Positions 20,958 through 22,185 of a stretch of 64,000 bases of DNA are shown in pieces. The DNA is taken from the NCBI GenBank assembly GCA_964509365.1, contig CAZDWN010000003.1, positions 134,412 through 198,411 of the forward strand. The letters run 5' to 3'. The notes under the pieces are model-generated. The model did no database searches and was not told the origin of the DNA. It saw nothing but the letters and a program-made list of their open reading frames with translations. The first letter of the stretch is position 1. The number at the start of each line of letters is the position of its first letter. A program made the position numbers and the translations under genes. Source of the DNA: an uncultured Pseudomonadales bacterium. GTDB taxonomy: Bacteria; Patescibacteriota; Microgenomatia; UBA1400; UBA12028.

Positions 20958-20998
20958 AGTATATCCCAAAAACGGGTCAAAAGCAAGGTTATAGGCCT
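20958..20998 (-). promoter_or_regulatory. sigma70-like promoter, copy 1 of a duplicated promoter/leader element (TTGCTT-N17-TATACT)
   Basis: Read on the minus strand: AGGCCTATAACC TTGCTT [17 nt] TATACT TCCCCTCTGTTTTG. A near-identical element lies at 22145-22185. Confidence 0.4.
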
Positions 20999-21021
20999 TG
21001 AAGAAAGGCTAGAACGCAAAA

Positions 21022-21046
21022 GCCCCTGGATACGGATATCCAAGGG
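21022..21046 (-). terminator. intrinsic terminator downstream of the DUF4097-like gene
   Basis: 11-bp stem (one mismatch) GCCCCTGGATA-CGG-TATCCAAGGGC. On the minus strand it is followed by UUUUGCGUUCU. Confidence 0.45.
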
Positions 21047-21075
21047 CATTGCATAGTGAAACAAGAAAAAAACGA

Positions 21076-21966
21076 TTATGAGTAGGTCTGTTGGGTAAAG
21101 AAGCCTTTTCCTGAGCCACCTACAACCGGCTCTATGGAAACCGGGCCTATGGTGACATCACCATTACCAAGCATATTCACCTTTGCAGATCTACTTCGGC
21201 CAAAAATGAGAACAGATCCATCAGCATTGATGTTGATGGATAAGTCTCCATGACTTTGTGAAGCACTATCATTGATTGTAACTCCACCACTTTGATTGAC
21301 CGTTACTGAAACGTCGCCGGTGACTGCTGAAAAAGTGATCAGACTCTGACCGTTGTTTACGAGCCGAAGATCAGCGGTTTGCCCAATGTTCAAGTCATGA
21401 AAACTGGCTGTATCGAGTTGAAGGTTCCCACCGAAATCATCGATTTTCAAATCGTTCCAACAGCCAGCGAGATCTAAGGTAGTTCCGTACGGGACTCGAA
21501 CGATCAACGTGCCTTTCGATGGCGATGCTAGCGCGTCGCGCAGATCGTCGTCCAGGATCATGCCGGTGACTCTTCGCTTTCCGAAAGGATATTTCTCAAT
21601 ATCGATTGTCAGTTCACCGTTGTATTGATACTTGCGTACGGAGTCGAGAATAGCTGGGTCAGATGAACTAACCTGCACCGTTCCCCACTGAAAAACGTGA
21701 GGTTGGATAAATACTTCCAAAAACGGGATACTCCCCAGGAACAGCTTTCTCATGTTGTCGACCCGTATCTCACCAGTGGTTTGCAGAGCTTGCTTCCACG
21801 GCGGAAATGGGGGGTCAAATGAGAATGCCGATTTGTCCTTCGCGTTAATGGCGCCAGTGACGCCATCAACAATGGAACCGTCCTGAAAAAACAGCTTTGA
21901 TCCTTTAATAGCTACGGCTGGCGAACTTGAATAGAACTTGCGACCAAGAAACGTAAACTCGTACAT
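21076..21966 (-). CDS. DUF4097-like (LiaG/LiaF-type beta-strand repeat) protein
   Basis: Repeated GDVSVTV / GGVTINDSAS / NINADGSVLIFG / GNGDVTIGPV beta-strand repeats. Start set at MYEFTF (21966), which has an AGGAG RBS 9 nt upstream. The 40-codon upstream extension in the ORF track would run through a strong stem-loop and is rejected. Confidence 0.45.
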   Translation of the reverse strand: MYEFTFLGRKFYSSSPAVAIKGSKLFFQDGSIVDGVTGAINAKDKSAFSFDPPFPPWKQALQTTGEIRVDNMRKLFLGSIPFLEVFIQPHVFQWGTVQVSSSDPAILDSVRKYQYNGELTIDIEKYPFGKRRVTGMILDDDLRDALASPSKGTLIVRVPYGTTLDLAGCWNDLKIDDFGGNLQLDTASFHDLNIGQTADLRLVNNGQSLITFSAVTGDVSVTVNQSGGVTINDSASQSHGDLSININADGSVLIFGRSRSAKVNMLGNGDVTIGPVSIEPVVGGSGKGFFTQQTYS

Positions 21967-21997
21967 GTTAAAACACTCCTGATAAATAAACGAAATT

Positions 21998-22063
21998 GAG
22001 AATGGGACAAGTCTGGGCACGAAAGTCATATCCAGACTGGTCCCATTCTCTGATTTTTTCTTG
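21998..22063. promoter_or_regulatory. 19-bp stem-loop in the 5' leader of the DUF4097-like gene (attenuator or bidirectional terminator candidate)
   Basis: GAGAATGGGACAAGTCTGG [15-nt loop] CCAGACTGGTCCCATTCTC, with 18 of 19 positions paired. Followed on the plus strand by UGAUUUUUUC and on the minus strand by AAUUUCGUUUAUUUAU. Confidence 0.45.
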
Positions 22064-22144
22064 TTCACTATGTAAAAGAGCAAGTTTTACGGAGAGAGTG
22101 CCAGGCGTGATACCCGGAATCTCACAGACGCAAAACAGGGGGAG

Positions 22145-22185
22145 AGTATACCTCAAAATGAGCCTAAAAGCAAGGTTATAGGCCT
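22145..22185 (-). promoter_or_regulatory. sigma70-like promoter, copy 2 of the duplicated promoter/leader element
   Basis: Minus strand: AGGCCTATAACC TTGCTT [17 nt] TATACT CTCCCCCTGTTTTG. Shares a 20-nt exact block (22166-22185 vs 20979-20998), the -10 flank, and a second leader block GCTCTTTTACAT with copy 1. Confidence 0.4.

Follow-up and report, generated by a model that had tools for sequence, protein, structure and literature searches.

A promoter and the structured RNA leader behind it recur together as a conserved multi-copy element, previously undescribed, of a Patescibacteria-type clade. The element, here termed the cassette, was found in a 64-kb window (the whole 64,000-nucleotide stretch of contig CAZDWN010000003.1 introduced above), where two minus-strand copies precede adjacent envelope-type genes; nine further copies were found outside the window, at loci of related genomes labelled L122, L258, L260 and L262. 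Each copy very probably carries a sigma70-type promoter from which transcription would start at a conserved G. Among known kinds of element, the cassette fits best with promoters that have a BoxA-type leader and stand ahead of protein-coding genes. By analogy with ribosomal RNA (rrn) leaders, the leader hairpin and the 12-nt box that follows it would form a Nus/boxA signal, with Nus binding and antitermination as its putative functions, and this reading is given a probability of roughly 0.55.

To our knowledge, almost nothing is known about the control of gene expression in Patescibacteria (the candidate phyla radiation, CPR). The cassette provides a testable promoter architecture for these bacteria, with a candidate regulator site, AGRCCTATAAC, and a candidate boxA outside rRNA in a lineage far from those in which BoxA regulation has been studied. 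It also marks a small island in which very fast-evolving envelope-related genes are set in a near-constant regulatory frame.

The cassette in the window and in related genomes

The two window copies share a 20-mer, AGGCCTATAACCTTGCTTTT, that occurs at exactly two sites in the window, 20979–20998(-) and 22166–22185(-). No third site was found elsewhere in the window even at up to 3 mismatches, and 100 shuffles gave 0 matches with 3 mismatches tolerated. Downstream of the 20-mer, each copy has 15 nt that are not conserved, then TATACT, a pyrimidine-rich block that closes with CTGTTTTG, a diverged stretch and a second block, GCTCTTTTACAT, at 20884–20895 and 22070–22081 on the minus strand. The TTGCTT-N17-TATACT core, the pyrimidine-rich block and GCTCTTTTACAT are all confined, within the window, to these two sites. 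The two exact 20-mer sites, their absence from shuffles and the uniqueness of the core and of GCTCTTTTACAT indicate that the repeat is not random. Pairwise alignment of the window copies delimits a conserved module of ∼115 nt with sharp edges, AGGCC and ...TTTTACAT, on either side of which the flanking sequence is unrelated. A profile search revealed no further cassette in the window.

The original prediction, made from the letters of the window, had described the exact 20-nt block at these two positions and the series TTGCTT, 17-nt spacer, TATACT in both copies; exact and pattern searches bear out both. Its degenerate C-rich block after TATACT is present in both copies, with one mismatch in copy 2 (TATACTCTCCCCCTGTTTTG vs TATACTTCCCCTCTGTTTTG). 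The coordinates that it gave for the second leader block also stand, although the gap of 62–64 nt that it placed between the two leader blocks is really 48–49 nt from CTGTTTTG to GCTCTTTTACAT (46–47 nt if its 1–2 extra leading bases are joined to the block); TATACT ends 62–63 nt ahead of the leader box. It had named beforehand, as contrary evidence, a motif scattered over unrelated non-promoter sites; the window holds just the two, and every copy across the genomes lies 5′ of a gene. Neither the likeness of the leader box to boxA nor the recurrence of the cassette in related genomes was part of the original prediction.

The features of the window locus, all on the minus strand, are listed in the order of transcription.

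22166–22185 (-): copy 2 upstream box AGGCCTATAACC, -35 hexamer TTGCTT (22168–22173) and TT, together the exact 20-mer; the box is kept as AGRCCTATAAC in L258, L260 and L122b
22145–22150 (-): copy 2 -10 hexamer TATACT, 17 bp past the -35
22136–22144 (-): copy 2 pyrimidine-only discriminator CTCCCCCT (22137–22144) and predicted start G 22136; a nearly purine-free stretch, then G, is found in all copies
22084–22136 (-): copy 2 leader hairpin HP1, 53 nt, boxB-like in position; minimum free energy (MFE) -18.5 kcal/mol, z -3.4
22070–22081 (-): copy 2 leader box GCUCUUUUACAU, boxA-like, 2 nt past HP1; 10/12 matches to the E. coli rrn boxA
21998–22050 (-): copy 2 long hairpin HP2, specific to gene A leaders and kept in five A-type leaders; whole-leader z -6.1
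21076–21966 (-): gene A, encoding a 296-aa Toastrack/DUF2807-like protein; AGGAG at 21976–21980 ahead of ATG 21966
21022–21047 (-): terminator-like hairpin closing unit A; 11-bp stem, then TTTTGCGTTC
20979–20998 (-): copy 1 upstream box and -35 hexamer TTGCTT (20981–20986); exact 20-mer
20958–20963 (-): copy 1 -10 hexamer TATACT, by pattern match
20949–20957 (-): copy 1 discriminator TCCCCTCT and predicted start G 20949; stretch, then G, as in all copies
20898–20949 (-): copy 1 leader hairpin HP1, 52 nt; MFE -13.2 kcal/mol, z -2.5
20884–20895 (-): copy 1 leader box GCUCUUUUACAU, boxA-like; predicted mostly unpaired (P paired 0.17)
20751–20883 (-): remainder of the copy 1 leader of ∼199 nt, in which UCCUUUUUC is predicted to pair with the GGGAAAGGA ribosome-binding region; z -3.4 to -3.7, P paired of the ribosome-binding region 0.89
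19995–20750 (-): unit 2, with gene B (20427–20750, 107 aa) and gene C (19995–20408, 137 aa); two hydrophobic helices each, no significant Pfam match
19929–19966 (-): hairpin GTGTGGCCTCTC...GAGAGGCCACAC 3′ of gene C, probable end of unit 2; read directly, absent from the generic scan list

The terminator-like hairpin at 21047–21022(-), between gene A and copy 1, indicates that the two copies head separate units. A coding role for the conserved blocks was rejected, as the two copies would read them in different frames. Coordinated triplets in the two spacers, CCC..GGG..CCC at 20964–20978 in copy 1 and CTC..GAG..CTC at 22151–22165 in copy 2 (minus strand), were considered as alternative pairings and dropped, as the other genomes do not have them; their complementarity is probably a coincidence.

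A scan of the genome contig collection with the 20-mer returned one unrelated Eubacteriales match, about 1 being expected by chance (1.2e12 positions vs 4^20). The promoter core, scanned against metagenome contigs, was swamped by an unrelated abundant human-gut promoter and gave no match with the flanking blocks, and two scans of viral contigs and a phage BLAST produced chance matches only. The syntenic locus L122 was found through a neighbour gene. The extra contigs were reached by a full HMMER search with gene A (homologues P0123, P0124 and P0130), which word-based searches had not recovered. The total is 11 copies in five genomes: copies 1 and 2 of the window, L122a and L122b, L258a and L258b, L260a to L260d, and the L262 copy. 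All 11 are placed 5′ of a gene and in that gene's orientation, and six lie directly 3′ of a terminator-like hairpin.

In L122, GAPDH is 93%, the PEGA protein 73% and the neighbour protein 67% identical to the window counterparts, and the gene A orthologue is 21% identical to window gene A (E 7e-11). Upstream of this orthologue, the L122a module keeps TATACT, TCCACCCTGTTTT, CGCCT and TCGCTCTTTTACAT. Two small membrane-protein genes follow the orthologue directly, with no second cassette between. A further, diverged cassette detected by profile search, L122b (15150–15246(-)), reads GAGCCTATAACA TTGCAA-17-TATAAT, hairpin, CGCUCUUAUUAG and precedes a gene for a 144-aa membrane protein; it has no counterpart in the window. 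In the window, a cassette and a terminator sit between gene A and the small membrane-protein genes, and L122 keeps the single-operon form, which suggests that the present two units descend from one ancestral operon. Most simply, copying of the cassette inside the island would have divided one operon into units that are terminated separately and still share their control input.

The layout of the window recurs in L258 and L259: a cassette with the exact 20-mer, an A homologue, a terminator, a second cassette and a gene for a 232-aa secreted protein. L260 carries four cassettes in a row (2084–4945, within 6.3 kb), which precede, in order, an A homologue, the gene for the 232-aa protein, that for an 87-aa membrane protein and a Band-7 gene. 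The first of these cassettes lies directly 3′ of the stop codon of a Cys-rich gene, the second to fourth are each preceded by a terminator hairpin, and the third has a short leader with a degenerate box. In L262, the leader stands upstream of the A homologue. The island is absent from L124 and L125, two loci found by neighbour-gene homologues, and no cassette accompanies the canonical DUF4097 protein of L261.

Alignment of the copies delineates the promoter. The box (T)AGRCCTATAAC, in the form TAGRCCTATAAC, lies immediately 5′ of the -35 hexamer and is kept across genomes. The contig end cuts off the -35 region of the L262 copy, and spacing was measured on the other ten copies: the -35 is TTGnnn in eight of these, and the spacer to the -10 is 17 bp in all ten. 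The -10 hexamer is TATACT in nine of the 11 copies, including both from the window (5/6 consensus positions), and TATAAT in two. L122a, with a 5-bp deletion in the -35 region, and L260d have a poor -35 and TGn just 5′ of the -10, which on sequence is classic extended -10 compensation; TGn is also present in L262. The discriminator is pyrimidine-rich and nearly purine-free, with a length of 8–9 nt in 10/11 copies and of 6 nt in L122b, and the base after it is G in every copy. This G is the first purine at least 6 nt past the -10, at a distance of 9–10 nt in ten copies and 7 nt in L122b. The promoter reading is well supported, in that the conserved and the free positions fit sigma70 requirements, all copies stand 5′ of genes and six follow a terminator-like hairpin. 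The generic promoter scan missed the window copies because TTGCTT agrees with the -35 consensus at just 3/6 positions. A sigma54 promoter (GG-N10-GC) was rejected on inspection of the aligned copies, the spacing being off by one and the GG not conserved.

The duplicated promoter of the original prediction thus gains support from eleven copies in five genomes, the fixed 17-bp spacing and the TGn where the -35 is poor. Conservation upstream of the -35, from which it had proposed a shared regulator site, extends across genomes as AGRCCTATAAC, and the existence of a regulator that reads this box is a suggestion from the sequence.

The leader RNA

In each of the three copies tested against shuffles, a single hairpin, HP1, spans the interval between the conserved blocks, with z -2.5, -3.4 and -4.1. 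The interior of HP1 is near-random in sequence between paralogues, and its pairing is kept. HP1 starts at the predicted start G, or at most 4 nt from it, in all nine copies folded. The window copies have the same three-helix layout, with an AGGA/UCCU pairing changed to GAGA/UCUC, and two-sided changes are also seen between L122, UUAUGCAUGAC/GUCGUGCGUAA, and L262, UUGAAAA/UUUUCAA (the L262 pairing was judged by eye). Folding of the opposite strand is less stable for two of these three copies, and G-U pairs favor the minus-strand RNA. In L258b, L260b and L260d the hairpin is weak (-7.6 to -8.1 kcal/mol). Its length ranges from 21 to 57 nt, and the box accordingly lies anywhere between 30 and 70 nt past the -10; the linker from hairpin to box is 0–9 nt throughout. 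The box shifts with the hairpin, which argues that the two form a unit at the level of RNA and not a DNA operator at a fixed position. Identical boxes beside a diverged hairpin interior, that is, conservation by blocks, argue for selection on regulation and not for recent copying.

Long leaders, of 164–199 nt, are strongly structured (z -3.4 to -6.7). HP2, a second long hairpin, is common to five A-type leaders, among which six of its pairs show compensatory two-sided changes. In several copies the leader box is predicted to be single-stranded between two structured domains, and the predicted folds leave the ribosome-binding site largely paired, an effect clearest in copy 1 and L122a and weaker in copy 2 and L258a. 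One predicted fold of copy 2 has the AGGAG ribosome-binding site paired to the box; copy 1 and L122a use a pyrimidine stretch other than the box. The idea that the box serves as an anti-Shine-Dalgarno sequence was rejected, as the pairing is found only in that one fold of copy 2. Rfam 15 covariance models assigned the cassette and the leaders to no family, giving only chance-level matches of microRNA type on the long hairpins. A shared leader RNA element, as the original prediction had it, is supported by pairing that is kept in HP1 despite sequence change and is then followed by a near-invariant 12-mer. The check that it had proposed, folding the leaders and comparing covariation, shows that both HP1 and HP2 keep their pairing through two-sided changes.

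The leader box as a candidate boxA

The 12-mer GCUCUUUUACAU is matched at 11–12 positions in nine of the 11 copies and at 8 positions in the other two. Compared with the boxA of the E. coli rrn operons, GCUCUUUAACAA, the window boxes agree at 10/12 positions and the variant GCUCUUUUACAA of L258b and L260b at 11/12. Against the consensus GYTCTTTAANA, which is gamma-proteobacterial and may not be that of the host, there is one mismatch, U for A at position 8. GCUCUU is invariant in 10/11 copies, and the critical C4 and U6 are thus kept; in E. coli suhB, the change C4T/T6C abolished boxA function (PMC5725501). Elsewhere in the window, matches as good as this to the consensus occur at a frequency of 3e-5 per position. 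The two copies with short leaders (81–83 nt) have degenerate boxes (8/12), whereas in the nine with leaders of at least 109 nt the box agrees at a minimum of 11/12 positions. Retention in long leaders is what would be expected if the box protected long untranslated RNA, in a small sample of copies.

In rrn leaders, a boxB-like hairpin is followed by boxA and then by boxC. Inspection of the E. coli rrnB leader showed, after the P2 -10 hexamer TATTAT, a C-rich stretch, a hairpin beside the start site and, 2 nt on, boxA TGCTCTTTAACAA; at P1, an 8-nt C-rich discriminator lies ahead of the start. The C-rich discriminator of rrnB P1 underlies growth-rate control. The cassette is similar to the rrn P2 leader in its -10 followed by a C-rich discriminator, its hairpin beside the predicted start site, a box identical at 10–11/12 positions (GCUCUUUUACAU beside GCUCUUUAACAA), its order of hairpin then box, and the long untranslated RNA downstream. 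In contrast to the rrn operons, at which a NusA/B/E/G-SuhB antitermination complex is formed, it precedes protein-coding genes, has no conserved boxC and differs at position 8 of the box, and Nus binding is putative.

Outside rRNA, BoxA has been described in several phyla, where it recruits NusB/E and modulates Rho termination or translation. Known sites lie 5′ of suhB, rpsJ and the gene for a ParE-like toxin (Baniulyte et al. 2017, PMC5725501) and 5′ of CRISPR arrays (Stringer et al. 2020, PMC7665894). The cassette resembles these in having a boxA-like sequence in a non-rRNA 5′ leader, in several copies per genome, ahead of untranslated stretches (PMC5725501, PMC7665894). It differs in that its box comes together with a 5′ hairpin and an unvarying promoter, and that the whole unit is repeated within one island of a distant lineage. 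The published BoxA sites at protein-coding genes are repressive and were sought no more than 50 nt from the start codon, whereas the well-conserved boxes of the cassette lie 49–149 nt upstream.

A mechanism can be proposed on this basis. At the DNA level, (T)AGRCCTATAAC would be a candidate site for a shared activator or for an UP-like contact beside the -35, and the pyrimidine-only 8-nt discriminator would force initiation at the next G. The transcript would then begin at the foot of HP1 and present the single-stranded box GCUCUUUUACAU 0–9 nt past the hairpin. Together, HP1 and the box might act as a nut-like signal, with NusB-S10(NusE) loading onto the elongating polymerase at boxA. Its likely purpose would be to carry RNA polymerase through a long structured untranslated leader that would otherwise be exposed to Rho or pausing. 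The Nus complex might also aid the folding of the leader or control translation, as the ribosome-binding site is mostly paired in the predicted folds. A sigma70-type promoter with an rrn-like Nus-factor leader would thus have been copied ahead of each unit of an envelope-related island.

Several observations weigh against this interpretation. Position 8 of the box misses the strict gamma-proteobacterial consensus, and boxA is reported to diverge in consensus between phylogenetically distant groups, so that such close agreement with E. coli, in a lineage this remote, might come from a U-rich motif by coincidence; the likeness to boxA was also noticed after the fact. No boxC-like (GU-rich) element is conserved 3′ of the box in alignments A6 and A7; boxC is a feature of rrn leaders only and is not required at non-rRNA BoxA sites. 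The 64-kb window contains no rRNA, nus or rho genes. Within the window and the 21-kb L122 locus, the cassette is confined to the envelope island. As regards the promoter, the window -35 TTGCTT has 3/6 consensus matches, the generic promoter scan listed neither window copy, and the start is placed at G 20949 and G 22136 from the sequence.

The confinement to one island would also fit a factor specific to it, with the box and HP1 as the target. An RNA-binding protein, a small RNA or a processing nuclease could fill this role and co-regulate the genes, for example by switching the structure around the ribosome-binding site between an open and a closed state. The genes served are functionally linked, and the set, comprising Toastrack-like, small membrane and Band-7 proteins, is tied to envelope stress in the literature. 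The predicted single-stranded state of the box between structured domains in several copies, and its pairing with AGGAG in one fold of copy 2, would also suit such a target. This pairing is not conserved, however, copy 1 and L122a using a different pyrimidine stretch, and there is no candidate regulator gene beside the island. A dedicated factor alone would also leave the close boxA match and the rrn-like order of hairpin and box unexplained. It is the main rival and is considered rather unlikely.

A hairpin followed by UCUUUU in every copy could alternatively be an intrinsic terminator. The transcript would start at the foot of this hairpin and end as a short RNA of ∼70 nt, a small RNA or an attenuated transcript, with the genes expressed by regulated read-through; the long leaders with further hairpins that follow are in keeping with attenuation of this kind. 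The U-run is just 4 nt, however, and begins 5–13 nt past the stem (the 0–9-nt linker plus GCUC), and the base of the stem is A-U-rich. The terminator scan left these sites unflagged, the hairpin is weak in L258b, L260b and L260d, no separate promoter serves the genes downstream, and the invariant GC and ACAU around the U-run are not needed by a terminator. Such a function is very improbable. Marginally less credit still is given to a further alternative, in which the repeat would chiefly be mobile or recombinogenic, as a miniature element that bears a promoter or as a stretch of homology that serves as a handle for gene swaps, and its conservation would reflect spread or gene conversion. The cassette is multi-copy with sharp edges, and the L258 and L260 flanks are 89–95% identical with an A frame between them that has no nucleotide similarity. 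Yet terminal inverted repeats and target duplications are absent. The two ends, AGGCCTATAAC... and ...GCTCTTTTACAT, do not complement each other, and the sequences flanking the copies are unrelated. All copies are oriented like the gene they precede, and the block-wise conservation matches promoter geometry (-35, 17 bp, -10, TGn), with the hairpin interior free. An integron attC site was rejected, as the cassette ends, compared by eye, are not complementary.

If the boxA reading is true, BoxA would emerge as an ancient and widespread means of controlling protein-coding genes, and the box could be used to find the targets of Nus factors in bacteria that have not been cultivated. Should it fail, the hairpin and box are an undescribed leader RNA element, with eleven examples available for model building.

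Genes served and other features of the window

Gene A itself falls below the DUF2807 cut-off (20.6 bits vs 24.2). Word-based searches with gene A, and with an alignment of A and its L122 orthologue, returned only those two proteins, whereas a full HMMER search found 74 remote homologues. Remote homologues with E values from 2e-15 to 7e-8 pass the DUF2807 cut-off, and two of the homologues, P0125 and P0127, also pass that of Toastrack DUF4097. A single-sequence AlphaFold model of gene A had a pLDDT of 46 and was too poor for use. Genes B and C encode two hydrophobic helices each, and their L122 equivalents have the same build without detectable sequence similarity. At the sister locus L260, a Band-7 gene is under the same cassette. 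Toastrack is described as a beta-helix domain found inside the cell, below the membrane, and repeatedly in envelope-stress systems of Psp/Lia type, where Band-7 is another recurrent partner (PMC11237479). The Toastrack homology of gene A, the Band-7 partner and the two-helix proteins B and C make the term envelope-type units a fair one. The assignments of the original prediction agree with these results: copy 1 serves the two small two-helix proteins (20427–20750 and 19995–20408), copy 2 serves the DUF4097-like protein at 21076–21966, whose weak DUF2807 match is backed by remote homologues that reach the DUF2807/DUF4097 cut-offs, and the two adjacent envelope-type transcription units are separated by the terminator-like hairpin and fit in gene content.

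The island shares with Lia/Psp-type envelope-stress regulons (Ravi et al. 2024, PMC11237479) its Toastrack-like, small membrane and Band-7 content and a shared promoter box beside the -35. It differs in gene neighborhood, since no PspA, PspC, LiaF, two-component or other candidate regulator genes were found near the island. A structured-leader extension of the shared element, which the cassette has, is not described for those regulons.

The only database copy of gene A, P0001, is annotated as 317 aa and starts at ATG 22029, which lies in the loop of HP2. AGGAG stands 9 nt upstream of ATG 21966, and L122 has an in-frame ATG in the same HP2 loop. The extra peptides are unrelated between the window and L122, and on this ground the upstream ATG was rejected as coding; the longer annotated start of gene A is probably wrong.

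The leader is shared by the homologues of gene A in L122, L258, L260 and L262. The A proteins of four genomes were compared and are 21–31% identical, against 93% for GAPDH between the window and L122. L258 (354–1256) and L260 (2314–3279) are closely related contigs, yet their A homologues have no nucleotide similarity and 26% protein identity. Upstream, the end of the preceding gene, the cassette, the leader and the first ∼10 nt of A are 95.5% identical; downstream, the last ∼12 nt of A, the terminator, the next cassette and the gene for the 232-aa protein are 88.8% identical. This looks like allelic replacement of gene A, or strong diversifying selection on it, within a fixed regulatory frame. 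As the flanks are alike to within ∼10 nt of the start and stop codons of genes that are themselves unlike, it is conceivable that cassettes and terminators form a fixed frame for the exchange of reading frames between strains by homologous recombination. Such an integrase-free gene-cassette system would diversify a sub-membrane or surface-related Toastrack protein in episymbiotic Patescibacteria with expression control held constant; the proposal is speculative and unlikely.

The window also encodes many glycosyltransferases, PMT_2-type transferases, PEGA/SH3 proteins, GAPDH, PGK and many family-less proteins. For a neighboring 417-aa protein, most named homologues come from Microgenomates, Woesebacteria, Roizmanbacteria and other Patescibacteria, which suggests that the genome is of Patescibacteria type.

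Divergent from copy 2, at 22205–22505(+), a TTGAAA-17-TATACT promoter pattern ends 8 nt 5′ of ATG 22242 of an 87-aa open reading frame (ORF), which has no family match and overlaps the 3′ end of a gene for a 1096-aa protein by 18 nt. The geometry of promoter and ATG suggests that the mRNA of this ORF is leaderless, and a similar promoter-to-ATG distance is seen for the gene at 43802–44254 (region 43802–44290, minus strand).

The 1096-aa protein is one of two very large cysteine-rich proteins encoded at 22488–28483(-); the other is 948 aa. They have repeated segments in common and no Pfam match, and their ORFs as listed overlap by ∼140 nt. Homologues occur directly upstream of the first cassette of L260 and beside the neighbour gene in L123, and are absent from L122, which indicates that this region of the chromosome varies between relatives.

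Three adjacent genes for proteins of 508–550 aa at 13534–18407(+) resemble tandem paralogues; PMT_2 is matched by two of them, and no Pfam family by the third. A conserved 34-nt repeat lies at the 3′ ends of the first two (15109–15142 and 16832–16865, 88% identical), and the first and third have an internal 42-nt repeat in common.

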